Positions 5,490 through 24,258 of a DNA stretch of 64,000 nucleotides are shown here, piece by piece. Under the pieces are notes generated by a model that worked only from the letters and a program-made list of their open reading frames with translations, was not told the DNA's origin and did not search any database. A program made the translations under genes and the position numbers. Position 1 is the first letter of the stretch. Every line of letters begins with the position of its first letter. Origin of the DNA: an uncultured Gammaproteobacteria bacterium (GTDB lineage Bacteria; Patescibacteriota; Patescibacteriia; UBA9570); NCBI GenBank assembly GCA_964385285.1, contig CAYLOJ010000005.1:493-64492 (forward strand), written 5' to 3'.

Positions 5490-6761
5490 ATGAGTCACCT
5501 GATCGGAGATCCTGCCATTGCTGCGTTGATCGCGGCGGAAGAAGAGCGCCAGCGCAACGACCTCGAGCTCATCGCTTCGGAGAACTACGTCTCTCCGGGC
5601 GTGCTCGCGGTCGTCGGCAGCATGCTCACCAACAAGTACGCTGAGGGTCTCCCCGGTAAGCGCTACTACGGCGGCTGCGAGGTCGTCGACAAGATCGAGG
5701 AGCTGGCCCGCGCCCGCGCCCTTCAGTTGTTCGGTCTGTCCGACACCAACTGGGGGGTAAACGTGCAGCCTCACTCCGGTGCCAACGCCAACCTGGCGCT
5801 GTACCTCGCCACCCTCCAGCCGGGCGACACGCTGATGGGGCTGAACCTCTCGAATGGGGGACACCTCACCCATGGATCCACCGCCAACAGCTCCGGCAAG
5901 CTCTACCGGGCCGTCTACTACGGCGTCAACGAGTCCGGCTACATCGACATGAACGAGGTCCGCGCGATCGCCCTGCGCGAGCGCCCGAAGCTCATCATGA
6001 CCGGTGCTTCCGCCTATCCGCGCACCTGGAACTTTGCCAGCTTCCGGGCCATTGCCGACGAGATCGGTGCCATCCTGGTCAACGACATGGCTCACATTGC
6101 GGGGCTGGTCGCCGCTGGGCTGCATCCGTCGCCGTTCGAGTACTGCGACTACGTCACGACCACCACACACAAGACCCTGCGGGGTCCGCGTGGTGGTCTC
6201 GGCTTCGCTCGCGGCAGCGAGAGGATCAAGGCCTACAACTCTGCGGTCTTCCCGGGTTCCCAAGGTGGTCCGCTCATGCACGTCATCGCCGGCAAGGCGG
6301 TGGCGTTCCACGAGGCGCTCCAGCCTGGATTCCAGATCTACCAGCAGCAGGTGCTCGCCAATGCCCAGGTGATGGCGCGCGTGCTCATGGATTGGGGCTT
6401 CGACCTCGTCTCCGGCGGCACCGACAACCACCTGATGCTGCTCGACCTCTCGAATCGCGACTACTCCGGCAAGGAGGCAGAAGCGATCCTCGGGCGGGCT
6501 GGTATTACCGTCAACAAGAACACCGTACCCAACGAGAAGCGCTCGCCCTTCGTCACCTCCGGGGTCCGCATCGGCACCCCGGCCATGACCACCCGCGGCT
6601 GCAACTCCACGGACGCGGTCGACGTGGCGAACTGGATCGCGGACGCTCTGGAGCATCGCACCGACGAGGCACTGCTCAGTCGTGTTCGTGACGAGGTCCA
6701 CAAGTTGATGGCCAATCGGCCGATTCCGGGCTTCAAAGGGCCGAAAGTCGACCACGAGTAA
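5490..6761 (+). CDS. glyA: serine hydroxymethyltransferase
   Basis: Motifs 'ELIASENY', '[17 protein letters not shown]', and PLP-lysine motif '[14 protein letters not shown]'. About 65% GC with extreme GC3 bias; GGAG SD upstream. Confidence 0.95.
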
Positions 6762-8918: not shown

Positions 8919-10583
8919 ATGACTGTCCGTAGTAAATTATGGCTTACCTTTAGTGGCATCATCTTGCTGGCGGCAGTGTCTGCAGTAGTGGTGTATCCTA
9001 ATGCTCCCGACCTTACTTGGAAAGGTAAGTTAGTACGGGAAATCAAGGTGCAATTGGGCTTGGATCTTCAAGGTGGTACAGCATTAGTTTATGAAGCTGA
9101 TCTATCTAAAATCACAGCCGGTGAAGAAGCTGAGGCATTAGCCGGTGTACGCGATGTCATTGAGCGACGCGTGAACGCTTTTGGTGTGTCTGAGCCTTTA
9201 GTACAAACTAGTCGTTCCGGTACGGCGTGGCGTGTCTTAGTAGAATTGCCAGGCATCACTGATGTGAATGCTGCGATTAAACAAATTGGTGAAACTCCAA
9301 CCTTAGAATTTAAGACGGAAGCCGCTGATCAATCCCTCAGCGACGAACAGGCAACCTTTATTACAAGCCTGAACGATCAAAACAAAGAGCAGGCCAATAC
9401 GTTATTGGATCAAGCAAAAGGTGGTTCTGATTTTGCCACGCTTTCGGCCGATTATTACACAGCGTTAGGTTATGTGGCACGTGCCACGCTAGACCCTGTG
9501 GTTGCCGATGCGGCCTTTGCAGCGAATAGTGGGGAAGTAGTGCCAACTGTCGTAGAAACCGCGGATGCGTATTATGTCTTGAAAGTGGAAGACAAAACTA
9601 CCGGTGTTTTGGATGTCTTAAATGGGATCAGTACTACTGCCCCAGAAGGTGCCGCTACCGTTGAGGCGGTCAAACTGAGTCAGATTGAGTTAGCAAAATA
9701 TCCCTTAGATGCCAGTTTGTTTGGTCCTCAATATGATGATACGCAGCTAACTGGGCAACAACTCGATCAAGCGACCGTTACTTTTGATCAAACGACTTCA
9801 GCGCCGATTGTTTCACTACAGTTTAACAGTGAAGGAGCTGATCTATTTGAACAGATCACCTCAAATAATATTGGAAAAACTATTGCCATCTATTTAGACG
9901 GTCAAGCGATTAGTACGCCGGTTGTGAATCAGGCTATCTCTGGTGGCCAAGCTGTCATTTCTGGAAACTTTACCTTGGACGAAGCCAAAACATTAGCACG
10001 TCGCTTAAATGAAGGAGCTCTACCAGTGCCTGTGACGTTGGTCAACCAGCGTAATATTGGCCCCAGTTTGGGGGCAGAGGCCTTAGAGCGTAGTGTATTT
10101 GCAGGTTTATTAGCCATGGTCTGTTTAGCAGTCTTCATGATTGGCTACTACCGTTATCCAGGTTTATTAGCCATGGCAGCACTTACCATCTACGGAGTAG
10201 TGTTGCTCGCGATCTTTAAACTTTGGCCGATCACATTAACCTTATCCGGAATCGCCGGCTTTATATTGTCGCTTGGGATGGCCGTAGATGCTAATGTGTT
10301 AATTTTTGAACGCACAAAAGAAGAATTGCGTAGCGGCAAAGATCTTCAAACTGCTATTAATGATGGCTTTAAACGGGCTTGGCTATCCATTCGTGATTCC
10401 AACGTCTCCTCGTTGATTACTTGTATTATTCTGAGTTGGTTTGGTACCTCAGTGATTAAAGGATTCGCGGTCACGCTAGCCATTGGTATCGTCCTCAGTA
10501 TGTTTACGGCTATTACGGTGACTCGGACATTCTTAAAAATCTTACCCGTCAAACATACCCGCTGGTACGGTGTAAAACAATAA
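8919..10583 (+). CDS. secD: protein translocase subunit SecD
   Basis: 'LGLDLQGGT', periplasmic domain, and a C-terminal 6-TM SSD-type domain 'NIGPSLG...'. Confidence 0.9.
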   Translation: MTVRSKLWLTFSGIILLAAVSAVVVYPNAPDLTWKGKLVREIKVQLGLDLQGGTALVYEADLSKITAGEEAEALAGVRDVIERRVNAFGVSEPLVQTSRSGTAWRVLVELPGITDVNAAIKQIGETPTLEFKTEAADQSLSDEQATFITSLNDQNKEQANTLLDQAKGGSDFATLSADYYTALGYVARATLDPVVADAAFAANSGEVVPTVVETADAYYVLKVEDKTTGVLDVLNGISTTAPEGAATVEAVKLSQIELAKYPLDASLFGPQYDDTQLTGQQLDQATVTFDQTTSAPIVSLQFNSEGADLFEQITSNNIGKTIAIYLDGQAISTPVVNQAISGGQAVISGNFTLDEAKTLARRLNEGALPVPVTLVNQRNIGPSLGAEALERSVFAGLLAMVCLAVFMIGYYRYPGLLAMAALTIYGVVLLAIFKLWPITLTLSGIAGFILSLGMAVDANVLIFERTKEELRSGKDLQTAINDGFKRAWLSIRDSNVSSLITCIILSWFGTSVIKGFAVTLAIGIVLSMFTAITVTRTFLKILPVKHTRWYGVKQ

Positions 10584-10587
10584 TTTT

Positions 10588-11472
10588 ATGGGCATTCTTC
10601 GTTTACGTTACATCTGGTACACCATCTCTGCTCTGCTTGTAAGTGCGAGCATCGTTGCCATGTTTGTGTATGGGTTCAAATTAGGGATTGATTTTACTGG
10701 TGGAACCTTACTACAAATACATTACACAGTTGAGCGCCCTACGATTACTGAACTTACTGAACAATTACAACCGTTAAATCTTGGTGAGACACTTATTGAA
10801 CCAGTGAATGCAGACGGCTACATTATTAAGACTCAGTTCATTAATGATGATCAGCGAGTGGCTATTCTGCAAGCGTTAGGGAGCAACGCGGTCGAAGATA
10901 GTTTTGAAACGGTTGGTCCGACCATTGGTCAAGAATTGCGTCAGAAAGCGGTGACCGCGATTGTGCTCGTGATGTTGGCTATTGTGATCTATATCGCCTG
11001 GGCCTTTCGAGGCGTTTCAAAAGGGCCGGTGCCATCCTGGGCCTTTGGCTTGTCCGCGATTATCGCCTTATTCCATGATGTTCTTATCCCGTTGGGTGTG
11101 TTTGCTGTATTAGGGGAGTGGCTCGGCGTGGAAGTGAATGTGATGTTTATTACGGCTTTGTTAACCATCCTGGGTTTTTCTATACATGATACGATTGTAG
11201 TGTTTGATCGTATTCGAGAAAATTTGCGTCGTAGTAGTCAAGTTACCTTTGCAGGCGTCATTGGTGAGAGTATTCAACAGACTTTAATGCGTTCATTAAA
11301 TACCTCAGTTACCGTAGTCATTGTGCTGGCAGTATTACTACTCTTTGGTGGGGAGTCGATTCGCTATTTCATCCTAGCCTTAATGATTGGCATTGGAGTT
11401 GGTACCTATTCTTCTATTTTTATTGCTTCGCCATCGCTATTGATTTGGCAAAAATTGTTACGCAAGCACTAG
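10588..11472 (+). CDS. secF: protein translocase subunit SecF
   Basis: 'GIDFTGGT' motif; 6 TM helices; immediately downstream of secD. Confidence 0.9.
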   Translation: MGILRLRYIWYTISALLVSASIVAMFVYGFKLGIDFTGGTLLQIHYTVERPTITELTEQLQPLNLGETLIEPVNADGYIIKTQFINDDQRVAILQALGSNAVEDSFETVGPTIGQELRQKAVTAIVLVMLAIVIYIAWAFRGVSKGPVPSWAFGLSAIIALFHDVLIPLGVFAVLGEWLGVEVNVMFITALLTILGFSIHDTIVVFDRIRENLRRSSQVTFAGVIGESIQQTLMRSLNTSVTVVIVLAVLLLFGGESIRYFILALMIGIGVGTYSSIFIASPSLLIWQKLLRKH

Positions 11473-11545
11473 TCTTGCGTTATGAAACATATTTGACAGT
11501 TTGTAAAAGAAATGATATACTATTAAATGTAGTTATCATTAGATT

Positions 11546-12673
11546 TTGATGTTTATGGATAATGCAGGTTCAATTTTGGATCGTATTATTGCCAGCAAAG
11601 AAGATCAAGAGAAGCAGGAATTTCAGCCTTTAGAGGTGATTCGTGGTTTGCTTAGTGTACTAAGTGAAAAAGAAGCCGATGTCTTACAGCGACGCTACGG
11701 ATTAAATGGAGTGGCCAAAGAAACGTTAGAGGCGATTGGTGCTTCATACCACGTGACACGTGAACGCATCCGTCAAATTGAAAACTTGGCGGTGAAGAAG
11801 ATTAAAGACGATTCCACATTTCTCTCAGTCATTAAACCCGTTGAGCATGTAATTATCAGCACCATCGAGGAGCATGGTGGAATTATGCAGGAAGAGCATC
11901 TACTCAATGAACTGATGCCAAGCAACCGTACAGCTGCCTTTGATCAAGCCTTAGTCTTCCTACTCACTGAATTATTAGATGATCGTGTTTCTAAGGTTGG
12001 ACCTGATAAGGTTTTCATGAAAGGTTGGCGTGTTAAAACTGCCGATCTCCATTTTATTGGAGATGCTTTAGAGATGTTAGCCAAAACGATTCGTGAAGCT
12101 AATCTGCCGCTAGATTTGGCTGCTTTACTAGAGCGTATTCAGACCGATAGTTTTTATCTGCAGCATGCGGAGCGGCTGAGTGAAAAAACCATCCTCGCTA
12201 TTTTGGAAGTCAGTGCGGTGATTGATCATAACCCGTTTGATGAATATGGTTTGCGTGAGTGGGGTAGTGTAGTGCCTAAACGCATGAACGATAAGATCTA
12301 TCTCATTTTAAAGAAAGTGGGCAAGCCGATGCATTTCATTGATATTGCTAAACAAATTAGTGAAGTGTTTGGCAAAGAAGCTTACCCTCCCACCGTGCAT
12401 AATGAGTTGATCTTAAATAGTCATTATGTGCTGGTCGGACGTGGCATTTATGCCTTGTCGGAGTGGGGGTATGAAAAAGGTGTTGTAGCTGATGTGATCT
12501 CCACAGTATTGCAAGTGAAAGGCAGTCCAATGACACGTGATCAAATTGTCCAAGCGGTGTTAGAACGTAGAATTGTCAAGAAAAACACTATTCATTTAGC
12601 GCTCACTAATAAGAAATTATTTAGTAAGTTGCCCGACGGCCGTTACACCTTAGCGCCGCAGGCAGCCGAATAG
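11546..12673 (+). CDS. protein with N-terminal sigma-70 region-4-like HTH, unknown C-terminal domain
   Basis: 'ADVLQRRYGLNGVAKETLEAIGASYHVTRERIRQIENLAVKKIK' closely matches the sigma-70 region 4.2 consensus. The remaining ~280 aa are unassigned. Confidence 0.5.
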   Translation: MMFMDNAGSILDRIIASKEDQEKQEFQPLEVIRGLLSVLSEKEADVLQRRYGLNGVAKETLEAIGASYHVTRERIRQIENLAVKKIKDDSTFLSVIKPVEHVIISTIEEHGGIMQEEHLLNELMPSNRTAAFDQALVFLLTELLDDRVSKVGPDKVFMKGWRVKTADLHFIGDALEMLAKTIREANLPLDLAALLERIQTDSFYLQHAERLSEKTILAILEVSAVIDHNPFDEYGLREWGSVVPKRMNDKIYLILKKVGKPMHFIDIAKQISEVFGKEAYPPTVHNELILNSHYVLVGRGIYALSEWGYEKGVVADVISTVLQVKGSPMTRDQIVQAVLERRIVKKNTIHLALTNKKLFSKLPDGRYTLAPQAAE

Positions 12674-12677
12674 CAAT

Positions 12678-14237
12678 ATGCCGATTTGGCTGGAGACGAT
12701 CATTACTGAATATGGCAGCAACCCGTTCAAGGCGTTGTGGTTTGTGTTGGGTCACGGCGGTGCCTTGATTTTCATTCCAATCATGATCAAGATGGCCACT
12801 ACTGGCTGGATCTTTTGGTTGCAGGAAGTGTACAAACACCATATGCCTCATACGATGTATCGAGTAGAGGTGCCGCAGAACAATGAACAGAGTATGAAGG
12901 CCGTTGAACAGATTTTTGTGCAGTTGTATGGTTCCTACAATGAACCAGACTGGTGGGAAAAATGGTGGCTTGGCTTTGTGCAGGAAGAGTTTTCGTTTGA
13001 GATTGTTAGTGATGGTGGCTATATTACTTTTTATGTTCGCACTCCCACTAAATACAAAGAAATTTTGCAGTCAGCTTTTTATTCGCATTATCCAGATGCT
13101 ATCTTAACTGAGGTGGAGGATTATACCAAAGAAATTACAGTAGACATGATTAATGACGGGAAGGTGAAAGTCTGGGGCTCGGAAATGAAATTAGAAAACG
13201 ATGACGTTCAGCCAATTAAACCGTATCCGGCATTTGAACATCAGCTAACCGGTAAGGCAGTGGATCCGATGGCTAATATGTTAGAGTTGATGAGCCGCAT
13301 GCAACCTGGAGAAAAATTGTGGTATCAAATTATGGCCCAACCTACCAGTTTGGCACACTTGAAGCATCGTTCAGAGGCAGCGATCACAGCAATTGTTGAT
13401 CCTGGTAAAGCGGCGCATCATGGTGGGCCAGATATCTTAGACCACGTGACCAAGTTTGTCTGGATGGTCTTGGGTGGTATCCATAAAATTCTTTTTGGTG
13501 GCGAGGATGATGGTGGTGGTCATGAAGAAAAACCGGCCGGCCGTGAACGTTTAACTGGGCCAGAAAAAGAGTTTGTGGAGGAAGTCGATAAGAAAGCTTC
13601 CCGCTGGCCGTATCATACCAAAATTCGCTTTATGTATTTTGCTGCTCCTAAAATTTATGATGCAACGAAGGCACGTCGTGGTATGTTGGGTGCGTTTCGA
13701 TTGTATCGTTTTATTAATGCCTTTGCTGAAGGAACATTAACGCGCACAGATTGGGGTTGTTTACCGTACCGCTATATTCGTCCTGAACCACGATTACTGG
13801 CTCGAGCGCGCCATATGTTTTGGGCATATCGTTCACGGGACATGGAGCGTGGCGAACATGAAGGGTTTATACTGAGTACCGAAGAGTTGACTGCGATCTA
13901 TCACTTCCCATCGATTGATGTACGTGCTCCGTATGTGGCCAAAGCCCAATCACGTGGTGTGGAGCCACCAACGCTATTACGCTATGACGAAGGTGAGGCG
14001 GAACCGGGTATGGGGGTACAGATGGAGAAGGGTAGTACAGACCGAGTAATGACATCTGGTAGTGGAGTACTCTTAGAGCCGCCTACCAGTGTACTAGGTA
14101 GTGAACCGCCGCTAGTAGCACGACCCCGCGTGACCTTAGCGCAACCTGAAGATGTCCCTACGGAAGGTAGCTCTGAAGACCGTGCTGGCGTTCCCGGAGC
14201 AGATAGTGACGCCCCATCTAATTTACCGTTTGTATAA
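12678..14237 (+). CDS. hypothetical membrane-anchored protein (N-terminal TM pair, large soluble domain), immediately upstream of the VirD4-like ATPase
   Basis: N-terminal hydrophobic pair 'FKALWFVLGHGGALIFIPIMI..TTGWIFWL'; acidic Gly-rich stretch; Pro/Glu-rich tail. 5-nt gap to the next gene. Confidence 0.5.
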   Translation: MPIWLETIITEYGSNPFKALWFVLGHGGALIFIPIMIKMATTGWIFWLQEVYKHHMPHTMYRVEVPQNNEQSMKAVEQIFVQLYGSYNEPDWWEKWWLGFVQEEFSFEIVSDGGYITFYVRTPTKYKEILQSAFYSHYPDAILTEVEDYTKEITVDMINDGKVKVWGSEMKLENDDVQPIKPYPAFEHQLTGKAVDPMANMLELMSRMQPGEKLWYQIMAQPTSLAHLKHRSEAAITAIVDPGKAAHHGGPDILDHVTKFVWMVLGGIHKILFGGEDDGGGHEEKPAGRERLTGPEKEFVEEVDKKASRWPYHTKIRFMYFAAPKIYDATKARRGMLGAFRLYRFINAFAEGTLTRTDWGCLPYRYIRPEPRLLARARHMFWAYRSRDMERGEHEGFILSTEELTAIYHFPSIDVRAPYVAKAQSRGVEPPTLLRYDEGEAEPGMGVQMEKGSTDRVMTSGSGVLLEPPTSVLGSEPPLVARPRVTLAQPEDVPTEGSSEDRAGVPGADSDAPSNLPFV

Positions 14238-14242
14238 TACTT

Positions 14243-16621
14243 ATGTCTGCAGATATTACAGTCTTTGCCGAAACTAATTTCCGTAACCAACGACGTAAGT
14301 TTGGTATTAAGCGCGATGACCGTCGTCGTCATATGTACGTGGTGGGTAAAACCGGTATGGGTAAATCGACCTTGCTGGAAAATATGATTATTGCCGATAT
14401 CCGCGCTGGTAATGGGTTGGCAGTCGTTGATCCGCACGGCGATCTGGCGGAAAAAATTCTAGAATATATTCCGAATAATCGGGTAAACGATGTAATCTAT
14501 TTTAATCCATCGGATACAAAATTTCCGATCGCCTTCAATATTTTGGAGAGCATTGGCGAAGATTACAAACATTTAGTGGCCTACGGCTTAGTCGGTGTGT
14601 TCAAGAAAATCTGGGCAGATTCGTGGGGTCCTCGTATGGAATATATTATGACCAACACTATCTTGGCGCTGTTGGAGTATCCCGGTAGTACGTTGTTAGG
14701 GTTAATGCGCATGTTGGTAGACAAAACCTATCGCAAAAAGGTTGTTTCCAAAATTCAGGATCCGGTCGTAAAAACCTTCTGGGCAGATGAGTACGCAAAT
14801 TATTCTGAAAAGTTCCGTACAGAGGCGATTGCTCCGATCCAAAACAAAGTCGGTCAATTTTTAGCTTCTGCCATTATTCGTAATATCGTTGGACAATCGA
14901 AAAGTACGATTGAGATGCGCGATATTATGGATAAGCAGAAGATTCTGATTATGAATCTAGCGAAAGGCCGTATTGGTGAAGAAAACTCCGCGTTGTTAGG
15001 CGCAATGATGATTACAAAATTGCAGATTGCCGCGATGAGTCGTGTGGATATTCCAGAACCAGATCGTAAGGATTTTTATCTCTATGTTGATGAGTTTCAG
15101 AACTTTGCCACCGATAGTTTTGCGGGAATTTTATCTGAAGCGCGTAAATATCGGTTGTGTTTAATTATGGCTCATCAGTACTTTGAGCAGCTGGGAGATG
15201 TGGTGAAAGCCGCTGTGTTCGGTAACGTTGGTACGATGATTGTATTTCGCGTAGGTGCGGCGGATGCTGCGGAATTAGAACTGGAATTTGCTCCGCAGTT
15301 CTTGCCAACGGATATTGTAAACCTGAAAAAGTATACTTTTTGCTTGCGTCTGATGGTGGATGGCGTTGCAACCGAACCTTTTTCTGGCATTGGTTTAGCG
15401 CCGGCGTCAGGTGCTACTAGTAACCGAGATAAAATTATTAAGGTGTCACGTGAACGCTATGCGCGTCCACAGGAGATGGTAGAAGATCGTATCATTCGGT
15501 GGAGTGGTGTAGAAATTACCAAACCCGGTGCTACTCCGGTTGATGGTGCACCAGTTGATGATAACAATGATGAAGGGGATGATATGAACTGGCCTGAACC
15601 CACTTGGAAAAATGATCTGCCAGATGATGAGTTAGCGGATATTAGTCCGATTGTGGCAGTGCCAGGCGGTGTGAATGTGGAAGCACCGGTAGCTAATACT
15701 AGCAGTGCCTTTGTAAATGCGGATGGATTTATTCCTGGTGATCACGCTCCTACAATCACAAAAACCCCTACTGAGATGCCAGTGGTCAAAGCTGAGCCTG
15801 TTGTGAAATTGGCTCCCGAGCCGATCAGTGAGGTGCCAGCCGCAGTAACAGCTAGTACAACAGAAGCCAATCGTCCGCGGATTAGCTTTATTAACCATCT
15901 ACCATCTTCTTTGGCGACTGAACCTGTGGAAGAACCTCAACCGGTTGTTGCTGTACCGGTAGTGGATACACCCACACCTACAGTTATGCCTGTTCAACCT
16001 ATTGCACCGACCAAACCACAGCCGCAGGTGAAACAGGCCGTTACTCCACCCACATCTGTTCCGGTAGCACCACAACCTAAAGTGCAACCGATTGCGTCAA
16101 TCAAACCCCCCGTGGTGGCTCCTGTGCAATCCGCCGCACCGATCAAGCCAGCCGCGCCACGTGTTGTACTTGAAACAGAGCCAGACGCTACGGATGATGA
16201 AGGCGATGAGGATACTGACGATGAGGATACTGAAGGTACTGACACTAGTGGTCCAAGTGTTTCTTTGCAGGCACTCAAACAGGGTAATGTCCAATCCGTA
16301 AAATTTTCTGGTGCTCAGAATACTAGTGGTAGTAATAATGGGGTAGGTAATAGTAATTCTGGTGGTGGCGATCCAGCAAAACGTAAACGGAAGCGTAAAC
16401 GGAAGCGTGGAAATGGCAGTGGTAATCCTAGTACCCCTGGTGTTAATCCCGTTGCTGCAACGAGCAACCCTCAACCTAAACAAACTTTTTCTGCGGAAGC
16501 CAGGCCGCGTGCTCAAACTCCTCAACCTAGCCCTGCAGCTAAGCCTGTGGCTCCAGCGCCAACTCCTAAACCAGCCGTCAGTGCTGATACCACTAAAGTA
16601 CAGTGGGGCGATCTATTATGA
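14243..16621 (+). CDS. VirD4/TraG/TraD-like type IV coupling-protein-type ATPase with long disordered Pro/Val/Ala/Thr-rich C-terminal tail
   Basis: Walker A 'VVGKTGMGKST' and Walker B 'LYVDEFQNF' in the TraD/T4SS-DNA-transfer arrangement. The last ~330 aa are low complexity with an acidic 'TDDEGDEDTDDEDTEGTDT' stretch and 'KRKRKRKRKRG'. Confidence 0.6.
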   Translation: MSADITVFAETNFRNQRRKFGIKRDDRRRHMYVVGKTGMGKSTLLENMIIADIRAGNGLAVVDPHGDLAEKILEYIPNNRVNDVIYFNPSDTKFPIAFNILESIGEDYKHLVAYGLVGVFKKIWADSWGPRMEYIMTNTILALLEYPGSTLLGLMRMLVDKTYRKKVVSKIQDPVVKTFWADEYANYSEKFRTEAIAPIQNKVGQFLASAIIRNIVGQSKSTIEMRDIMDKQKILIMNLAKGRIGEENSALLGAMMITKLQIAAMSRVDIPEPDRKDFYLYVDEFQNFATDSFAGILSEARKYRLCLIMAHQYFEQLGDVVKAAVFGNVGTMIVFRVGAADAAELELEFAPQFLPTDIVNLKKYTFCLRLMVDGVATEPFSGIGLAPASGATSNRDKIIKVSRERYARPQEMVEDRIIRWSGVEITKPGATPVDGAPVDDNNDEGDDMNWPEPTWKNDLPDDELADISPIVAVPGGVNVEAPVANTSSAFVNADGFIPGDHAPTITKTPTEMPVVKAEPVVKLAPEPISEVPAAVTASTTEANRPRISFINHLPSSLATEPVEEPQPVVAVPVVDTPTPTVMPVQPIAPTKPQPQVKQAVTPPTSVPVAPQPKVQPIASIKPPVVAPVQSAAPIKPAAPRVVLETEPDATDDEGDEDTDDEDTEGTDTSGPSVSLQALKQGNVQSVKFSGAQNTSGSNNGVGNSNSGGGDPAKRKRKRKRKRGNGSGNPSTPGVNPVAATSNPQPKQTFSAEARPRAQTPQPSPAAKPVAPAPTPKPAVSADTTKVQWGDLL

Positions 16622-18210
16622 TCTTGGCGACTTGTTCGCAGTGCCAACAAGCGTTTTCCATTTTTGAGCAAGATCAGACCTTTTACAAGCGTCTTGGAGT
16701 GCCAAATCCTGTACGCTGTCCGCAATGTCGATTTCAGTTGCGCATGTCATTTCGGAATGAACGGTTTCTCTACCAGCGGAATTGTGCGTTGTGCCATAAG
16801 GTCACTTTGTCACAATATTCACCAGATAAACCCTATGTCATTTATTGTCGTGCCTGTTGGTGGAGCGATCAATGGGATCCACTATCATTCGGACAGCCTA
16901 TCGATTGGTCTAGACCTTTTTTTGAGCAGCTGGCGGAGCTAAAGTTGCACACGCCGCGACTTGCATTACTGAACGATGGTGATAGTGAAAATAGTGAATA
17001 TTGTAACCGTGTGAATAAGCTGAAAAATTGCTACATGATCTTTGATGCTGTGGGGAATGAAAATTGTAGTTACGGTGCTGGCTTATACGGCAATCGAGAC
17101 AGCGTAGATTGTGATTATTGTGATCGCGTTGAGTTATGTTATGACTGTAGTTATTGCACAGAATGCTATAACCTAAAATTCAGCCGGGAGAGTGTGAATT
17201 GTCGAGACAGTGAGTACTTACTCGATTGCGTTGGTGTCTCTAATTCATTGATGTGTGTTGGTTTGCGGAATGTAGAGTATCATTATAAAAATAAACCGGT
17301 CACACCAGCGGAACTGAACCGACTACGACAGATGCCCCACAGCAGTGCTGAGTTTGAGCAATTTGCTTTAAACATGCCACGGCGCTACTACAATGGTGTA
17401 AATAACGCTGATAGTAGTGGTGATCATTTGGTAAATACACACGCTGTCCAAAACTCCTTTCAAGTGCGAGATTCTGAAAACTGTAGCTACTGTTATGGCG
17501 TGCATCACAGTAAGGATTCTTACGATTATACGATTTGGGGCGAACAAGCCGAACTGATGTATGAAGCGCATGCCTGTGGTGGACAGACAACACGCACCTT
17601 ATTTGGCAATGTGGTTTGGTACGGACACGATACCTATTATTGCGACCACTGCTTGAATGGAGCTGTAGATTGTTTTGGCTGCATTGGTTTAAAGAATCAA
17701 TCAAACTGTATTCTGAATAGATCATATTCTCCCGAAGTGTACCAAGCCACCAAAGATAAATTAATTGAACACATGAAAGCGACGGGTGAGTGGGGTCAAT
17801 TTTTTCCGGAGCGTTTGAGCGATTTTGCATATAATGAAACGATGGCTCAAGAATTCTTTCCGCTGACCAAAGCACAAGCTCTAACCCGAGGTTGGCAGTG
17901 GCAGGATCACTTACCCGGTATCTATGGTAAGGCTGATGCGGGTAAGCAGATCTATGATTGCATCGATTGTAGGAAGAATTTTAAATTGGTGACAGCAGAG
18001 CTAGAGTTCTATCAAAAACAGGGTATTCCTGCACCATCGCGCTGTCCGGATTGTCGGCACGCTGCCAGAATGCGATACAGGCCACCCTACCAACTATGGG
18101 AGCGCAGCTGCATGAACACGGGCTGCACGAATCGTTTCCAAACCGCTTATAGTCCAGAACGTAAAGAGATCATCTATTGTGATAGCTGCTATAAACAGTT
18201 AGTCTATTAA
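16618..18210 (+). CDS. Cys-rich tandem-family protein A (N- and C-terminal zinc-ribbon-like modules, Cys-rich repeats)
   Basis: ATG at 16618 overlaps the TGA of the upstream ATPase (ATGA). About 10% Cys. N-terminal 'CSQCQQ..FY..LGVPNPVRCPQCR..LRMSFRNERFLYQRNCALC..VIYCRACWWSD'. C-terminal 'FYQKQGIPAPSRCPDCRHAARMRYRPPYQLWERSC...IIYCDSCY'. Confidence 0.7.
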   Translation: MILATCSQCQQAFSIFEQDQTFYKRLGVPNPVRCPQCRFQLRMSFRNERFLYQRNCALCHKVTLSQYSPDKPYVIYCRACWWSDQWDPLSFGQPIDWSRPFFEQLAELKLHTPRLALLNDGDSENSEYCNRVNKLKNCYMIFDAVGNENCSYGAGLYGNRDSVDCDYCDRVELCYDCSYCTECYNLKFSRESVNCRDSEYLLDCVGVSNSLMCVGLRNVEYHYKNKPVTPAELNRLRQMPHSSAEFEQFALNMPRRYYNGVNNADSSGDHLVNTHAVQNSFQVRDSENCSYCYGVHHSKDSYDYTIWGEQAELMYEAHACGGQTTRTLFGNVVWYGHDTYYCDHCLNGAVDCFGCIGLKNQSNCILNRSYSPEVYQATKDKLIEHMKATGEWGQFFPERLSDFAYNETMAQEFFPLTKAQALTRGWQWQDHLPGIYGKADAGKQIYDCIDCRKNFKLVTAELEFYQKQGIPAPSRCPDCRHAARMRYRPPYQLWERSCMNTGCTNRFQTAYSPERKEIIYCDSCYKQLVY

Positions 18211-18211
18211 T

Positions 18212-19867
18212 ATGTCGTCGAACTGTCGACACTGTCAGTCTGCATTTGTAATCACGAGCAGTGACCAAGCTTATTATGATCGCATCGCCGTACCGGCACC
18301 AACCCTATGCCCGCGTTGTCGTTTGCAGCGTCGCCTAAACATGCGCAATGAACGTGTCTTGTATCGACGCTCATGCGATTTGACCAGTGAATCAATCGTG
18401 ACCATTTTTTCACCGGATAGCCCATATACGGTGTATAGCCAAAGCGCTTGGTGGAGCGATCGTTGGGATCAACTAAAATTTGGCCGGGAGATGGATTTTA
18501 CTCAGCCCTTCTTCGCGCAGTTAAAAGCTTTGCAACTACAGCAGCCGCGCATGGCCTTACTCGCCAAAGATAGCGAGAATTCTGAATATACTAATCATTC
18601 TGCTTACAACAAAAATTGTTATTTAGGTTTTTCTGTGGTGAATTGTGAAGACGTAGCGTACGGATTCATGAATTTTAAATGTCAAAATTTAGTGGATTGC
18701 AGTTACATGTATGATCATAGCGAGCTGTGTTATGAATCTTTCTATGGACACGGAAATTATCGCTGTGCTTACACCACGCTTTGTCGGAATTGCACGAATG
18801 TTTGGTTTAGTTTTGATCTAAGTGGTTGTAAGGATTGCTTCTTGTCATATAACCTGCGCAATAAGCAATATTGTTTTTTAAATCAGCAATTAACTGCCGT
18901 TGAATATCAGCAGCGCGTGGCTGAGTATCAAACCATGACCTATGAGCAACAGCAGGGTCTTATTCAACAATGGCGGATGCTAATGGCTACGCAAGCCGTG
19001 CATCAAGCAACTCATCAAATTCATTGTTCAGACACCACGGGTAATTATCTGGCGCGGTGTCATCAAGTGCACGAAGGATATTATGTATCCGAGGCAGAAA
19101 ATTGTAGTTATGTAGCGCAAGCGGAAAATATTAAAGATTGTGTTGATGTAACCAATGTAGCACCGGCCGAAGCCTGTTATGAGGTTGCGGCTATTATTAA
19201 TGATAATCATTGCAAGTTTACCAACTACTCATATGATGATAGTTTCTTAGAATATTGCGATCACGTATTTAATTCACAACATCTCTTTGGTTGTGTTGGT
19301 CTAAATCGCCAGAAGTATTGTATTTTGAATCGGCAATATACGGAACCAGAATACGAGCGATTAAAAGCCAAATTAATCGCTTACATGAAAACGACGGGGG
19401 AGTACGGTGAGTTTTTCCCCTTAGGATATTCACCCTTTGCGTATAACGAAACGGTTGCCCAGGATTTTTTCCCTCTCACCAAAGCGCAAGCCCTAGCCTT
19501 GGGTGCTCAGTGGAATGATGCACTCGATCTCTTATCGCCAATTACCAATGGAGTAGATGCAAGTACATTGCCAGATACGATTGCTGGTGTTGAGGATGAT
19601 ATCCTGACTAAAACGTTGATATGCATTGTCTCTAAACGTGCCTATAAAATTCAACCCACTGAACTGTACCTGTATCGACAGCTGGGAATACCGTTGCCAC
19701 GTAAACATCCCGAAGTTCGGTTGAAGGAGCGCATGACCCAACGGGTCACCCCCGGTTTATTTGAACGCCAGTGCAACAAATGTTTACGGTCAGTGGCATC
19801 CAGTTTTGCAGCCGATCGTTCAGAGCGGATCTATTGTGCAAGCTGTTATCGCGAGGCCGTTTATTAG
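18212..19867 (+). CDS. Cys-rich tandem-family protein B (partly degenerate zinc ligands)
   Basis: Starts 1 nt after A's stop. N-terminal 'CRHCQ...YYDRIAVPAPTLCPRCRLQRRLNMRNERVLYRRSC', but the second knuckle is lost ('VYSQSAWWSD'). The C-terminal module has 'RKHPEVR' in place of CPxCR. Confidence 0.7.
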   Translation: MSSNCRHCQSAFVITSSDQAYYDRIAVPAPTLCPRCRLQRRLNMRNERVLYRRSCDLTSESIVTIFSPDSPYTVYSQSAWWSDRWDQLKFGREMDFTQPFFAQLKALQLQQPRMALLAKDSENSEYTNHSAYNKNCYLGFSVVNCEDVAYGFMNFKCQNLVDCSYMYDHSELCYESFYGHGNYRCAYTTLCRNCTNVWFSFDLSGCKDCFLSYNLRNKQYCFLNQQLTAVEYQQRVAEYQTMTYEQQQGLIQQWRMLMATQAVHQATHQIHCSDTTGNYLARCHQVHEGYYVSEAENCSYVAQAENIKDCVDVTNVAPAEACYEVAAIINDNHCKFTNYSYDDSFLEYCDHVFNSQHLFGCVGLNRQKYCILNRQYTEPEYERLKAKLIAYMKTTGEYGEFFPLGYSPFAYNETVAQDFFPLTKAQALALGAQWNDALDLLSPITNGVDASTLPDTIAGVEDDILTKTLICIVSKRAYKIQPTELYLYRQLGIPLPRKHPEVRLKERMTQRVTPGLFERQCNKCLRSVASSFAADRSERIYCASCYREAVY

Positions 19868-19989: not shown

Positions 19990-21567
19990 ATGCCAACTCG
20001 TACATGTACCAATTGCTCCGGACAATTTAATCTCTCATCTGCAGATGAAAAATTTTATCAGTCCATCAGTGCACCACTACCCAAACAGTGTCCGCGTTGT
20101 CGCCAGCAGCGGCGCTTAGCGTATCGTAACGAACGCGCATTATTTGCTGATCAGTGTGCGAAATGTCAAACAAAGATTTTGTCATTGTATCAACCCACGG
20201 ATGGTTTGACGGTCTATTGCCAGACGTGTTGGTGGAGTGATGATTGGGATGCAGCCGATTATGGACAGGAGATCGATTGGAATCGTTCATTGTTGGAGCA
20301 ATATCAGGAAGTACGCAAACGTGTACCGCGCCTAGCCATTGTCAATTTGAATAGTGAAAATTCAGATTACACCAACATGTCAGCGGACAACAAAAATTGT
20401 TATCTATTGTTCGCATCAGAAAACTGTGAGAACTGTTCCTATGGAAAATTAGTTCAACACTGCAAAGACTGCTTTGATAATGCTTTTCTGTATGATTCTG
20501 AATTGTGTTATGAATGCATTAATTGTCGCAATTGTTTTCAGTGTACATATTTGCAGGATTCCCAAGACTCACGAGATTGTCATTACTCGTTAGGCTTAAA
20601 AGGTTGCAGTAATGTTTTTTTAAGCAATGATTTGCATAATAAAGAGTATTATATTCGTAACCAACCCGTTGCCCCGCAGGAATATGCAGCCAAGGTAGCA
20701 GAGTTATTAAAGGATCAACCGCAATGTCAGCGAGAATGGGATGCGTTATCACAAAAACGGATTGTAAAATACGCCGGAATTTTGAATAGCCCAGATTGCA
20801 CTGGTGACGCACTGACCAATTGTAAACGTGTGTTTGACTCGTATGATATTACCGATGGTCAAGATATCCGTTATTGCAGTGATGCCCTCACTCCGAAAGA
20901 TAGTTATGATTGTTCATTCTTCTATTACAATCCAGAATTGTGTTACGACTCACTCAGCATGCTGGAAACATACAACGTGCATTATTCAACCTTTATTTTT
21001 TATAGTCGTGATGTTGAATATGGTGATCAGATCCACAATAGTCATGACGTCTTATTATCTTCTTGCCTCCGTAAAAAAGAGTACACCATATTAAATAAAG
21101 TTTACTCTCCTACGGAATACGCAGACTTACGGAAGCGAGTGATTGCTAAAATGACCGAAGATGGTGAATACGGAGCCTTGCCGCCACTGAAGTATAGTTT
21201 GTTTGCCTATAATGATACTGTCGCTAACGAATACTTTCCATTGACCGCTGATCAAGCCAAACAAAGACATCTACGTTGGAACCAATCCGCAGATGCTGTA
21301 ACTACTAAGCCCTTTAACCTGACAGCGGCCGAAAAAGCCTTTTACGCTCAATTACATTTAACCGAACCTACTGTACATCCCGAACTGCGTCATCGTCGTC
21401 GCATGGCTAAACGTAATCCACGCAAATTATGGGAGCGCCAGTGTATGTGCGTGGAGGCAGATCATCAGCACGCCGTACAGTGTCCTAAGAAGTTTCACAC
21501 TACGTATATGCCTGATCGTTCAGAAAGTGTCTATTGTGCCGAGTGTTATCAAAAACGTTTTTACTAA
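19990..21567 (+). CDS. Cys-rich tandem-family protein C
   Basis: N-terminal 'CTNCSG..FYQSISAPLPKQCPRCRQQRRLAYRNERALFADQCAKC..VYCQTCWWSD'. C-terminal '...VHPELRHRRRMAKRNPRKLWERQCMC..DHQH..VYCAECY'. Confidence 0.7.
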   Translation: MPTRTCTNCSGQFNLSSADEKFYQSISAPLPKQCPRCRQQRRLAYRNERALFADQCAKCQTKILSLYQPTDGLTVYCQTCWWSDDWDAADYGQEIDWNRSLLEQYQEVRKRVPRLAIVNLNSENSDYTNMSADNKNCYLLFASENCENCSYGKLVQHCKDCFDNAFLYDSELCYECINCRNCFQCTYLQDSQDSRDCHYSLGLKGCSNVFLSNDLHNKEYYIRNQPVAPQEYAAKVAELLKDQPQCQREWDALSQKRIVKYAGILNSPDCTGDALTNCKRVFDSYDITDGQDIRYCSDALTPKDSYDCSFFYYNPELCYDSLSMLETYNVHYSTFIFYSRDVEYGDQIHNSHDVLLSSCLRKKEYTILNKVYSPTEYADLRKRVIAKMTEDGEYGALPPLKYSLFAYNDTVANEYFPLTADQAKQRHLRWNQSADAVTTKPFNLTAAEKAFYAQLHLTEPTVHPELRHRRRMAKRNPRKLWERQCMCVEADHQHAVQCPKKFHTTYMPDRSESVYCAECYQKRFY

Positions 21568-21586
21568 CTTCTGAGCTGGTTGAAGT

Positions 21587-23257
21587 ATGAATATCCAATG
21601 CCAACAGTGTCACAAAACGTTTCAGGTCACGCCCGATGACCAGTCGTTTTACGAACGGATCAAAGTACCTGCACCGACACTATGTCCAGATTGTCGCTAT
21701 CAGCGGCGCATTGTGTGGAGGAATGAGCGAACGTTATATAGTCGCCAGTGTGATCTTTGCCATAAAGGTATTATCTCGCTCTATCATCCGGCAAGTCCCT
21801 ACACGGTCTATTGCTATGAGTGCTGGTACTCTGATCAATGGAATCCATTAGATTACGGGCAGGAGATCGATTTTAGTCGTCCATTTTTTGAGCAGTTCAA
21901 AGCGTTGCAGCTAAAAGTCCCTCGGTTGTATGCCTTGATGGTTAACAATGAAAATTGTGAATATACCAATGGTACTCAGCAATGCAAAGATTGTTACATG
22001 ATTTTTGCTAGTGATCATGACGAACAGTGTATGTATTCCTATGGCACCTTTAATTCTGTGCAATCATTAGATCTAATGAGTAGTACTAAATGTGAGCTGT
22101 GTTATGAATGTGTTGGTTGCAGCAATTGTTATGATCTGCAGTATTCTGAGGATTGCAGTAATTGTCACTCCTCACTATTTCTGATTGACTGCAAGGGGAG
22201 TAGTGATTGCTTCATGTCGTATGGATTGCGAAATAAACAATATGTTTGGCAAAATCAGCAATTAACAGCTGAACAGTATCAGACAAAGCTGGCAAATTTA
22301 AAACGCAGTAGCTATCAAACGATTGCTCGGCTAAAAACAGAGTTTGCTAATCTGAAAAAGAAACACATCTTCAAATATTATCATGGCCAGAATAATGAGA
22401 ATTGTTCTGGTGACTACCTGGAGCGGTGTGTCAATAGTACTCACTGCTTTGAAAGTTTTGGGATTCAAAATTGCAAGTATATTACACATGGTAACCAAAT
22501 TAAAGATACCTATGATGGTTATATGAATGTGGATGGAGTGGAGCTCGGTTATGAATTAGTGGGGGCGATTGGTTCCTATAATGTGAAGTATGCGATTGCC
22601 TATTATGGTGGCCGAGATTGTGACTATATGGATACGGCCAAACAGGTGAATAACAGTTTTGGTTGTGTGGGATTGCAGCACCAGCAGTATTGTATTCTGA
22701 ACAAACGCTACAGCCCAGAAGACTATGCCCAGTTGAAGAGTCGTCTGATTGAACATATGAAAACTACGGGTGAGTATGGTCAGAATTTTCCAGTGACCTG
22801 TTCACCATTCGCGTATAATGAAACAGCAGCTCAGGACATGTATCCTTTGACCAAAGCTGAAGTGGAGGGTCGGGGATGGCAATGGCGTGATCCAATCGTC
22901 AAAGAGGCGCGCTATAGTACTTATCGTGTAACGGATGACATCGCTAAAACTAATGATGATGTCTTGCAAACATTTTTGACCTGTGCGCAATGCCATAAGC
23001 CTTATAGAGTTGTAGCAGCAGAATTGGCGTTTTACCGTACGCAACAGATTCCGTTGCCACGCTGCTGTTTTGAATGTCGTCATCGCCAGCGCTTAGATCA
23101 CCGCAACCCGAGAGCTCTCTGGCATAGGCAGTGCATGTGCACTCAACCAGATCATGGCCACGCTGCAGTTTGTGCCAACACCTTTGAAACGGCTTATCCA
23201 GAGAGTAATGCGGCAATTGTCTACTGTGAACGCTGCTACGATCAAACCATTGCTTAA
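21587..23257 (+). CDS. Cys-rich tandem-family protein D
   Basis: N-terminal 'CQQCHKTF..FYERIKVPAPTLCPDCRYQRRIVWRNERTLYSRQCDLC..VYCYECWYSD'. C-terminal 'FYRTQQIPLPRCCFECRHRQRLDHRNPRALWHRQCMC..DHGH..VYCERCY'. 19 nt after C. Confidence 0.7.
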   Translation: MNIQCQQCHKTFQVTPDDQSFYERIKVPAPTLCPDCRYQRRIVWRNERTLYSRQCDLCHKGIISLYHPASPYTVYCYECWYSDQWNPLDYGQEIDFSRPFFEQFKALQLKVPRLYALMVNNENCEYTNGTQQCKDCYMIFASDHDEQCMYSYGTFNSVQSLDLMSSTKCELCYECVGCSNCYDLQYSEDCSNCHSSLFLIDCKGSSDCFMSYGLRNKQYVWQNQQLTAEQYQTKLANLKRSSYQTIARLKTEFANLKKKHIFKYYHGQNNENCSGDYLERCVNSTHCFESFGIQNCKYITHGNQIKDTYDGYMNVDGVELGYELVGAIGSYNVKYAIAYYGGRDCDYMDTAKQVNNSFGCVGLQHQQYCILNKRYSPEDYAQLKSRLIEHMKTTGEYGQNFPVTCSPFAYNETAAQDMYPLTKAEVEGRGWQWRDPIVKEARYSTYRVTDDIAKTNDDVLQTFLTCAQCHKPYRVVAAELAFYRTQQIPLPRCCFECRHRQRLDHRNPRALWHRQCMCTQPDHGHAAVCANTFETAYPESNAAIVYCERCYDQTIA

Positions 23258-23395: not shown

Positions 23396-24172
23396 ATGAT
23401 TACTAGCAAAGTTAAGAAAGATCTTTCCCAACTAGGTTTAACCGACAACGAGATCAAATTCTATGTGGCCGGATTGGAGTTAGGCTTGGCGACGATTCCA
23501 CAAATTGCTGAACGCGCCGGTTTATCCCGCATGACTGGTTATAACATTTTTAAAGTGTTGAGCCAGAAAGGGATGGCCGATATGGATGTACGTAGTTATG
23601 GTCAGAAATGTAAAGTGGCGAAACCAGCAAAATTACTCACTTTGTTTGAGCAGGAACGCAAAAGCTTAGATAAATTGGCCACCGACATGCCCAATTTAAT
23701 TGGGGAGTTGAATGTGTTGTATTCCTCAGTACCAGAGGATTTAGAGATCCATTACTTTCGCGCGAAAGAAGCGATCACTAAAATTTGGGACGAGGCCTTA
23801 ACCAACACAAAAAAAGGGGATGATCTATTAGTGCTATCCGCTGTAGATCTAGCGCCTACTCTGGGTGAACACTATCTGGAATTCATGGAAGAGCAACTGT
23901 TGCGTAGTACAGAGAAAGGGATTCACCTGAAAATGATTTTGGAAAAAACAGGTACCTATACCATCGCGCGAAGTGAGCTACAGCAACTTATTCCAGAATC
24001 AATGCAAATGAAATTAGGCGCTACATGTGATCAATTGATTTATGCTGATCACGTGGCCTACATATTTCCAGGCCGTGAATTGTTTGGCATCACTATTCAC
24101 AATAAAGAATTGGCTAATCACCATTCCAGAATTTTCTACACGTTGTGGAATAAAACCTATTCGTTAAATTAA
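23396..24172 (+). CDS. TrmB-family HTH transcriptional regulator
   Basis: N-terminal 'LSQLGLTDNEIKFYVAGLELGLATIPQIAERAGLSRMTGYNIFKVLSQKGM' fits the TrmB wHTH pattern (GL..E.KVY..LL..G..T..EIA...G..R..VY..L..L..KG). Embedded between family genes D and E. Confidence 0.6.
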   Translation: MITSKVKKDLSQLGLTDNEIKFYVAGLELGLATIPQIAERAGLSRMTGYNIFKVLSQKGMADMDVRSYGQKCKVAKPAKLLTLFEQERKSLDKLATDMPNLIGELNVLYSSVPEDLEIHYFRAKEAITKIWDEALTNTKKGDDLLVLSAVDLAPTLGEHYLEFMEEQLLRSTEKGIHLKMILEKTGTYTIARSELQQLIPESMQMKLGATCDQLIYADHVAYIFPGRELFGITIHNKELANHHSRIFYTLWNKTYSLN

Positions 24173-24258
24173 TTACCGTTTAGTAATGGGCATAAAGCCC
24201 ATCCCTCTCAATTATTTCTGGAGACCCCGGGTTTATCCTGGTGGTCAAACGATTATTT

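Follow-up and report, generated by a model that had tools for sequence, protein, structure and literature searches.

A chromosomal ATPase of the VirD4/TrwB type, encoded in 64,000 nt of Patescibacteria DNA (contig CAYLOJ010000005.1 of assembly GCA_964385285.1; the whole stretch is referred to below as the window), is preceded by the gene for a predicted membrane-anchored partner of the DUF8128 family and followed by an array of genes for Cys-rich zinc-ribbon proteins. The ATPase and its partner belong to a gene block that is conserved across the candidate phyla radiation (CPR), they are fused into one polypeptide in other lineages, and the ATPase is genomically linked to the Cys-rich arrays far beyond chance. 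We tentatively propose that the two proteins form a client-recruiting, membrane-tethered, two-part motor that is chromosomally encoded and specific to Patescibacteria.

Type IV secretion systems (T4SS) based on VirB4 are present in most Patescibacteria, and 5,713 homologues of VirD4-type coupling proteins (T4CP) have been counted in 2,918 genomes of these bacteria, 148 of them near virB4 (Quinonero-Coronel et al. 2025, PMC12102498). S. epibionticum requires its T4SS but not its T4CP copy, and exaptation of the T4CP homologues to other functions was raised as a possibility (PMC12102498), which is the sole published comment on the Patescibacteria proteins. The window gene is almost certainly a member of this orphan class. 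The orphan homologues as such are known already. What that study does not describe, and is added here, is a DUF8128 partner with a predicted VirB4-like fold, its occurrence as a separate gene or fused to the ATPase, synteny with SecDF and sigma-r4, short motifs in the tail and a statistical link to a large family of zinc-ribbon beta-solenoid proteins encoded in arrays. None of these was found in the literature, and no papers came up when full texts were searched for DUF8128 and zf_Tbcl by name or accession number. Patescibacteria make up a large part of bacterial diversity and are reduced, host-dependent cells, nearly all of which retain the ATPase at 60–94% identity. The orphan ATPase is here given an obligate partner whose predicted fold recalls the N-terminal half of VirB4, a conserved position on the chromosome beside the genes for SecDF and a sigma-r4/HARE-HTH protein, and a candidate client family, the arrayed zinc-ribbon beta-solenoid proteins.

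The ATPase core is of the VirD4/TrwB type

As judged by sequence comparison, the core of the ATPase belongs to the VirD4/TrwB family and is closer to T4CPs than to HerA, FtsK or VirB4. In Pfam searches it matched TrwB_AAD_bind (E = 4.3e-13 at residues 25–344, exceeding the 20.5-bit cut-off), with weaker matches to DUF87/HerA (6.9e-6) and TraG-D_C (5e-5), whereas FtsK_SpoIIIE and the VirB4-type domains (AAA_10/CagE_TrbE_VirB) were not matched. The best hit of a sequence search against the PDB was TrwB (E = 8e-9), followed weakly by DotL, with no other meaningful match. In BLASTP comparisons, TrwB of R388 aligned over 308 aa at 24% identity (E = 1e-13), bringing GKTGMGKS and YVDEF into register, whereas the alignment to TrwK/VirB4 was non-significant (E = 2.2) and only the P-loop of TrsE of pGO1 could be aligned (E about 1e-4). 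The Pfam and BLAST alignments also span TrwB residues 117–394, which hold the all-alpha domain, although identity is low in that region. The core is accordingly classified as VirD4-type because the T4CP scores exceed those of the HerA, FtsK and VirB4 comparisons. This agrees with the original prediction, made from the DNA sequence of the window, and the opposite outcome, a better alignment to HerA or FtsK, is ruled out by the relative scores (4e-13 for the T4CP family against 7e-6 for HerA in Pfam).

The family is large (more than 8000 homologues). The best 120 are at least 68% identical to the window protein over the core, and those among them that carry organism names are all Patescibacteria (Kerfeldbacteria, Uhrbacteria and others). 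Across Kerfeld-, Jackson-, Harrison- and Wolfebacteria and Parcubacteria, core identity is 60–94%. The protein shares with VirD4, TrwB of R388, TraD and TraG a homologous nucleotide-binding domain with aligned Walker A and Walker B motifs and a match to TraG-D_C (Pfam TrwB_AAD_bind, T4SS-DNA_transf). It departs from these T4CPs in several respects. No hydrophobic, transmembrane (TM)-like segment was detected in any part of its 792 aa and the P-loop already starts at residue 35; the N-terminal TM domain of T4CPs is thus missing, and a TM helix is found instead on the separate DUF8128 protein. Neither a T4SS nor a relaxase adjoins the gene in the 64-kb window. Furthermore, the ATPase is chromosomal and conserved at 60–94% over a phylum-level radiation, and DUF8128, not a relaxosome, is the partner with which it is invariably paired.

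The DUF8128 partner and its fusion to the ATPase

The 519-aa product of the gene directly upstream of the ATPase is assigned to DUF8128 (PF26449) by the precomputed annotation of a 100% identical protein (P0121) and of most homologues, and a profile of the family recovered 3,958 representative clusters. The protein consists of one N-terminal hydrophobic helix (about residues 16–54), an alpha/beta domain (about residues 55–435) and a C-terminal stretch of about 85 aa (residues 435–519), modelled with low confidence, that ends in a family-conserved P-x-N-L-P motif and possibly serves as a tether to the ATPase. Searches of Pfam at E ≤ 10 with all 57 members of the DUF8128 alignment yielded nothing recurrent.

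Among 20 genome loci collected with the ATPase core, all 19 that include upstream sequence encode a DUF8128 homologue immediately 5′ of the ATPase. In other lineages the two are single polypeptides, namely P0217–P0223 (778–866 aa, n = 7) and the proteins of loci L026 and L029, and in the fusions (733–866 aa) the DUF8128 domain joins the ATPase directly at residue ~2–13. Because the two are fused elsewhere, the sequence comparison indicates that the DUF8128 and ATPase genes of the window work together. The fusions of L022–L025 are TM-anchored, whereas those linked to Cys-rich arrays (L026, 17280–19523; L029, 8110–10332 on the minus strand; L039, L044, L045, L071, L074 and L098) lack the first ~100 profile positions and with them the TM helix, and carry a conserved C-terminal F/E-x-x-P-[ILM]-[IVL] motif that could be a docking peptide. 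A conserved ~165-aa protein without a Pfam match is encoded 5′ of the TM-anchored fusions; dnaX lies 3′ of them in L022–L024, with one 222-aa open reading frame (ORF) in between in L022 and L023, and the L025 locus ends before that position. In L026, a TPR protein is encoded directly 3′ of the fused ATPase.

The fold of the partner points to VirB4. An AlphaFold2 model of the 519-aa protein (pLDDT 80.8; 378 residues at ≥70) was compared with the PDB using Foldseek, and the top 14 matches were all TrwK/VirB4 chains from structures of the R388 T4SS, with 411–457 aligned columns. Thirteen of these had E-values of 1.4e-5 to 1.5e-4 at probability 1.00 and the fourteenth (7o41_A) an E-value of 3.5e-2 at probability 0.80; the matches ranked below them were unrelated (E > 0.08). 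Entries containing only the C-terminal domain of VirB4 were not among the matches and neither was TrwB, which has the ATPase fold, so that the matching part is taken to be the N-terminal domain of VirB4. According to the model, therefore, the DUF8128 fold probably resembles the VirB4 N-terminal domain and, if this match is right, the gene pair and its fused relatives probably reproduce the architecture of VirB4 around a VirD4-type motor. Such an arrangement would bear on the divergence of VirB4 and VirD4, since it would represent a natural chimera of a VirB4-like N-terminal domain and a VirD4-type motor.

The similarity to VirB4 (TrwK of R388, TrsE of pGO1) would extend to order and size, in that the pair and the 733–866-aa fusions place an N-terminal alpha/beta domain before a P-loop ATPase; VirB4 structures are the only ones matched by the DUF8128 model at E ≤ 1.5e-4, and the hydrophobic helix could serve as VirB3. 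By sequence, however, the ATPase domain is not of the VirB4 type, and the window encodes the two parts in separate genes. The TrsD–TrsE pair of the MPF-FATA class (pGO1) also has a small separate protein encoded just 5′ of an ATPase, and TrsD has been likened to the N terminus of VirB4. TrsD, however, is a 227-aa protein with no detectable similarity to the DUF8128 profile, and TrsE is a genuine VirB4. The predicted VirB4-N-terminal-like partner, which the original prediction had missed, makes a VirB4/VirD4 hybrid in two parts, instead of a coupling protein acting alone, the closest analogy of the system.

Conserved motifs in the C-terminal tail of the ATPase

In an alignment of 11 close, Kerfeldbacteria-type homologues, conservation of the ATPase stops at about residue 424. 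What follows is a tail of about 365 aa, somewhat longer than the ~330 aa first estimated, with the predicted richness in Pro, Ala, Val and Thr (16%, 11%, 11% and 8.6%, respectively). Aromatic and aliphatic residues make up 3–17% of each 40-aa window in the tail, compared with 23–45% in the core, and tail length varies from about 60 to 370 aa among homologues. The tail is presumably disordered, given its composition, variable length and poor conservation.

Five short conserved islands stand out from the otherwise drifting tail sequence of the 11 homologues (Table 1). The fourth is the poly-basic run, 8–10 Lys/Arg residues long in all 11, and the last is the C terminus itself, which in every homologue reads TK(V/I)x(W/L/I)xD(L/I/F)(L/M/F). 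A second, partial basic unit had been described in the window protein; however, 'KRKRKRKRKRG' and 'GGGDPAKRKRKRKRKRGNGSGN' are one and the same stretch, the latter written with its flanks, and the run is single. The acidic block TDDEGDEDTDDEDTEGTDT is present as described, but it is an insertion found in the window sequence alone among the 11 homologues, the others having acidic runs elsewhere in the tail.

Among the best 120 homologues, 36 have a K/R run of at least six residues and 37 end in a zf_Tbcl_2 zinc ribbon (CxxC-x17-CxxC), and none has both. About 11 of the 120 would be expected to carry both if the two were independent, although the sequences are related and this number does not translate into a formal probability. 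Since no homologue combines them, the distribution suggests that the K/R run and the zinc ribbon are alternative endings. The possibility that motif 3 (SLxxLKQGxVxxVxF) is a Cys-less zinc ribbon was ruled out, as the hidden Markov model (HMM) of the ribbon scored the tails no higher than it did 200 shuffled sequences.

Long C-terminal extensions are also found in TraD and DotL. Such T4CP extensions are flexible regions with short docking elements and recruit substrates or adaptors, as in the TraD–TraM and DotL–IcmSW/DotN pairs. The window tail has no sequence similarity to either, and is marked instead by FIP, RPRISF, SLxxLKQGxVxxVxF, the K/R run and the C-terminal DLL.

A conserved chromosomal block outside of mobile elements

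SecD and SecF, a sigma-70 region 4 protein (referred to as sigR4), DUF8128 and the ATPase are encoded in a conserved block. With tblastn and ORF clustering, SecD–SecF were found immediately 5′ of sigR4–DUF8128–ATPase in 13 loci, including the window, and 15 of the 16 genome loci that are informative on this point, from Kerfeld-, Jackson-, Harrison- and Wolfebacteria and Parcubacteria, have the sigR4 gene 5′ of DUF8128. Both partners singled out in the original prediction are thus conserved neighbours, the sigma-r4 protein at 15/16 loci and the 519-aa membrane protein, which is fused to the ATPase elsewhere, at 19/19. The sigR4 protein matches Sigma70_r4 (4e-13) and HARE-HTH (8e-7) in Pfam and the NCBIfam model of the RNA polymerase (RNAP) delta domain at residues 246–307, and lacks sigma region 2; it could act as a partner that binds DNA or RNAP. 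Ahead of its gene, the best promoter-like site, TTGACA-17-TATACT with a TG extension (11 of 12 consensus positions), marks a possible start of the operon, although it is a consensus match only and the regional total of such sites does not exceed the shuffle expectation.

From sigR4 through DUF8128, the ATPase and the first two Cys-rich paralogs, CysA and CysB, the genes are separated by +4, +5, –4 and +1 nt, and no Shine–Dalgarno sequence is obvious at these junctions. The –4 junction is the ATGA overlap between the ATPase stop and the CysA start. The overlapping ATG is a sound start, giving a 530-aa protein with its first Cys at position 6, in agreement with homologues. The overlap had been taken to imply co-translation of the two genes. 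That reading is overstated: the overlap represents ordinary operon packing and is not kept in relatives, where the corresponding spacing is 3 nt (L006), about 220 nt (L005) or about 630 nt (L001). It is one of four consecutive tight junctions, as is typical of a polycistronic unit.

The window itself is ordinary chromosomal Patescibacteria DNA, with genes for serine hydroxymethyltransferase (SHMT), SecD/SecF, TruB, transaldolase, QueG, ABC transporters and L,D-transpeptidases. As had been noted from the sequence, T4SS components are missing: among the window ORFs scanned with Pfam, none matched VirB4, VirB6, VirB8 or a relaxase, and the window encodes no second large Walker-A protein. Neither tRNA or other Rfam features nor an integrase or relaxase was found in it, and the GC content of the locus is the same as that of the flanks. 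The housekeeping synteny with SecDF and the 60–94% identity of the core across CPR classes indicate that the locus does not belong to a conjugative element. In this respect the original prediction, which had argued against a full conjugation system, stands; its positive counterpart, a minimal DNA/protein-translocation module, was an overstatement and should be regarded as a hypothesis only.

Linkage to arrays of Cys-rich zinc-ribbon paralogs

Downstream of the ATPase, the window encodes five Cys-rich paralogs, four in direct succession and a fifth beyond a TrmB-like regulator. CysA–CysD each have a treble-clef finger and a CxxC-x17-CxxC ribbon at either end of a beta-solenoid core; in the AlphaFold2 model of CysA (pLDDT 86.5, pTM 0.89), this core is flanked by zinc modules at both ends. 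When compared with the PDB, the CysA model retrieved only left-handed beta-helix enzymes, weakly and non-significantly (probability ≤ 0.16), and the search of BFVD matched short phage zinc-ribbon proteins; neither search provided a functional lead. The family comprises 2,357 detectable homologues, and all organism-named members are from CPR bacteria, to which it appears to be restricted. Arrays of these ~550-aa proteins (window 16618–25887; L026, L027 and L030) contain 5 to 12 paralogs that are 35–45% identical. A gene for a TrmB-like regulator often lies within such an array or adjoins it, and the array-plus-TrmB arrangement of the window recurs in L005, L026 and L030.

The association with the ATPase holds when the loci are approached from the Cys-rich side. 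For five Cys-family proteins from other lineages that were used as starting points, the ATPase adjoins the array in three cases, those of Peribacteria (L026), Jorgensenbacteria (L027) and Falkowbacteria (L029). We then considered 80 metagenome loci, 0.9 Mb in total, which had been picked solely by homology to the Cys-rich family using a 10-sequence alignment as the query. A homologue of the ATPase core is encoded in 20 of the 80, and in 17 of the 44 loci that are at least 10 kb long, whereas about 1–2 occurrences would be expected by chance in 0.9 Mb. The link between the ATPase and the Cys-rich paralogs, which had been proposed from the window alone, is thus upheld by stronger evidence than the gene overlap.

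The two are also connected at the level of domains. An HMM built from the ribbons of ATPase tails gave best E-values of 9e-6 to 3e-4 on CysA, CysB, CysC and the fifth paralog. It matched both ribbon regions in CysA, CysC and the fifth paralog (E = 0.008–0.023 for the weaker region) and was convincing in CysB at the C-terminal ribbon only, whereas CysD gave no match. The ATPase tails of other lineages and the Cys-rich proteins are thus predicted to carry the same type of ribbon.

Proposed function and alternative explanations

In the two-part motor that we tentatively propose, DUF8128 would take the role of the VirB4 N-terminal domain together with a VirB3-like anchor and hold a hexameric VirD4-type motor at the membrane. 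The ~365-aa disordered arm, with its five motifs including the K/R run and the C-terminal DLL, would recruit clients or adaptors, by analogy to the C-terminal extensions of TraD and DotL. The likeliest clients would be the zinc-ribbon paralogs encoded directly downstream, and the motor would hand on, unfold or export them, either alone or into a Patescibacteria T4SS encoded elsewhere. It is rather doubtful, although conceivable, that DUF8128 and the ATPase represent a third, CPR-specific branch of VirB4/VirD4 motors that is independent of canonical T4SSs and that, with the Cys-rich family and the TrmB regulator, forms an ATP-driven system for exporting, delivering or assembling these proteins, possibly for interaction with host cells.

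Several observations weigh against the two-part motor and its parts. The likeness of DUF8128 to VirB4 is at the fold level only, with low TM-scores (0.27–0.36) and 8% identity. By sequence, an hhalign comparison of the DUF8128 alignment with TrwK gave a probability of 0.4%, the DUF8128 profile had no match in the PDB, and in hmmsearch it scored TrwK, TrsE and TrsD no better than shuffled sequences. Neither sequences nor profiles thus connect DUF8128 with TrsD or with the N-terminal domain of VirB4; a tie at the sequence level was accordingly dropped, leaving the fold match as the remaining support. As to the clients, eight of the 20 ATPases linked to Cys-rich arrays are fusions without a TM helix, and membrane export can therefore not apply to all of them. 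The Cys-rich proteins have neither a signal peptide nor the charged C-terminal tail typical of T4SS substrates, and their four predicted metal-binding modules would resist unfolding. Most of the SecDF-linked orthologues (L007–L020) have no Cys-rich array within 8 kb, and transposon sequencing in S. epibionticum found its t4cp homologue to be non-essential (PMC12102498). Finally, a nucleic-acid substrate would be equally compatible with the basic run and zinc ribbon of the tails, with a sigma-r4/HARE-HTH gene next door and with descent from TrwB.

These last features underlie an alternative in which the protein is a DNA motor, that is, a membrane-tethered TrwB-like hexamer for DNA uptake beside ComEC and type IV pili, for segregation or for export, with the basic run or ribbon binding nucleic acid and the sigma-r4/HARE-HTH protein targeting the complex to DNA. 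Descent from the TrwB family would fit such a role, as would the mutually exclusive tail endings (a K/R run, or a zinc ribbon with a basic tail), the conservation of the sigma-r4/HARE-HTH gene at 15 of 16 informative loci and the proximity of dnaX to the TM-fused forms in L022–L024. Yet no relaxase, ComEC or Xer-type partner was found in the window, basic runs bind acidic lipids or proteins as well, and the strong linkage to the Cys-rich arrays would be left unexplained. We consider this account unlikely. We likewise consider it unlikely that the ATPase is simply a remote coupling protein feeding a chromosomal T4SS of the MPF-FATA-like type (VirB4, TrsD, VirB3, VirB6 and pilins), with DUF8128 merely serving as its anchor. 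Its sequence does fall within the T4CP family, and its long C-terminal extension is like the substrate-recruiting tails of TraD and DotL. T4CP genes are also often far from virB4 and T4SSs are widespread in Patescibacteria (PMC12102498, PMC12857230). However, the scarcity of T4CP homologues near virB4 (148 of 5,713) and the dispensability of the S. epibionticum homologue alongside an essential T4SS (PMC12102498) speak against it, as does the report of Wang et al. that the T4SS of S. epibionticum has no recognizable coupling protein (PMC10633639). Moreover, core identity of 60–70% across CPR classes is well above the T4CP norm, soluble fused forms exist, and a partner that looks like VirB4 itself points to a VirB4-like unit acting autonomously.

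The soluble fusions would in turn be accommodated by a cytoplasmic ATPase that polymerises, depolymerises or metal-loads the beta-solenoid zinc-ribbon proteins without any membrane transport. The array-linked fusions without a TM helix end in the docking-like F/E-x-x-P-[ILM]-[IVL] motif, CysA is modelled as a compact beta-solenoid bearing ribbons at its ends (pTM 0.89), and the fused ATPase gene of L026 is followed by one for a TPR protein. Nevertheless, a hydrophobic helix is evident at the N terminus of the window DUF8128 protein, and the module lies beside SecDF; there is no sign of polymerisation of the Cys-rich proteins, and a soluble remodelling role is known for no relative of VirD4 or VirB4. 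Such a remodeller is, in our estimate, distinctly improbable. Least credible by far is a remnant of a mobile or conjugative element or a component of anti-phage defence, such as the mad8-like ATPase of MADS or a HerA-like ATPase. The similarities behind it are PADLOC matches to mad8 (E = 1.7e-13) and, weakly, to HerA, and weak NCBIfam matches to the conjugation models TraD and CD1115; the latter scores are far under the curated cut-offs (at best 43.5 bits against 366 and 35.2 against 250, respectively). Against this stand the housekeeping context, the synteny kept across CPR classes, the GC content equal to that of the flanks and the lack of an integrase, a relaxase or a further MADS component nearby. 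When PADLOC was run on the neighbours of the ATPase, no meaningful match was obtained, mad8 being matched by the ATPase alone. The defence reading was accordingly dropped, the mad8 match being attributed to generic ATPase similarity with the partner components missing, and so was the mobile-element reading, given the lack of tRNA/Rfam features, integrase and relaxase and the even GC content.

Table 1 Features of the ATPase locus (positions in the window; residues refer to the ATPase)
Feature	Coordinates	Strand	Remarks
secD	8919..10583	+	conserved upstream neighbour
secF	10588..11472	+	conserved upstream neighbour
Promoter-like site ahead of sigR4	11493..11521	+	TTGACA-17-TATACT, TG extension; 11/12 consensus positions
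sigR4	11546..12673	+	375 aa; sigma-70 region 4 + HARE-HTH/RNAP-delta-like; conserved upstream partner
DUF8128 (PF26449) protein	12678..14237	+	519 aa; upstream of ATPase; partner/anchor
ATPase ORF	14243..16621	+	792 aa (ORF listing)
ATPase core, residues 1–426	14243..15520	+	VirD4/TrwB-type P-loop NTPase domain by sequence; no transmembrane segment
Walker A GKTGMGKST, residues 35–43	14345..14371	+	regular expression and alignment to TrwB GATGTGKS; invariant in 11 homologues
Walker B FYLYVDE, residues 278–284	15074..15094	+	aligned to TrwB LWLFIDE; D283 and E284 invariant in 11 homologues
C-terminal tail, residues 427–792	15521..16618	+	about 365 aa; low complexity, presumably disordered
Tail motif 1, FIP, residues 496–498	15728..15736	+	near-invariant in 11 homologues
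Tail motif 2, RPRISF, residues 544–549	15872..15889	+	I547 and F549 invariant; R544 and P545 ≥90%
Acidic block TDDEGDEDTDDEDTEGTDT, residues 650–668	16190..16246	+	insertion seen in the window sequence alone among 11 homologues
Tail motif 3, SLxxLKQGxVxxVxF, residues 674–688	16262..16306	+	L675, L678, G681 and V686 invariant; F688 ≥90%
Tail motif 4, KRKRKRKRKR, residues 713–722	16379..16408	+	K/R run of 8–10 in 11/11 close homologues
Tail motif 5, TKVQWGDLL, residues 784–792	16592..16618	+	C-terminal; K785 invariant; D790 ≥90%
ATGA overlap of ATPase and CysA	16618..16621	+	TGA 16619–16621 over ATG 16618–16620
CysA	16618..18210	+	Cys-rich paralog; zf_Tbcl 39.0 bits (cut-off 24)
CysB	18212..19867	+	Cys-rich paralog; zf_Tbcl 28.5 bits (cut-off 24)
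CysC	19990..21567	+	Cys-rich paralog; zf_Tbcl under cut-off
CysD	21587..23257	+	Cys-rich paralog; zf_Tbcl 27.2 bits (cut-off 24)
TrmB-like HTH regulator	23396..24172	+	inside paralog array; Pfam TrmB 5.7e-9
Fifth Cys-rich paralog	24241..25887	+	548 aa; tblastn cross-matches; 38% identity to CysA; zf_Tbcl 8e-4, under cut-off

Other features of the window

At 36968–41839, 20 kb from the ATPase, the window encodes a giant cell-wall hydrolase of 1623 aa that carries LysM and SLT lytic-transglycosylase domains and recalls the large VirB1-like enzymes found in T4SSs of monoderms. Two paralogs at 2404–3804 and 6872–8353 carry both FG-GAP repeats and a YkuD L,D-transpeptidase domain, and a homologue of this type is also found 5′ of SecDF in related loci. 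Between them lies the SHMT gene (5490..6761), in an island of GC content 0.54–0.59 (window 4000–6800) compared with about 0.45 elsewhere; it may have been acquired horizontally, and an antisense shadow ORF (5475..6755) overlaps it over nearly its full length. The window further encodes a small CAP (cysteine-rich secretory protein) domain protein (53474–53941, minus strand) and two ferric-reductase/NOX-like membrane flavoproteins (Ferric_reduct + FAD_binding + NAD_binding; 30811–32115 on the minus and 56921–58198 on the plus strand), which are unusual in a reduced CPR genome.

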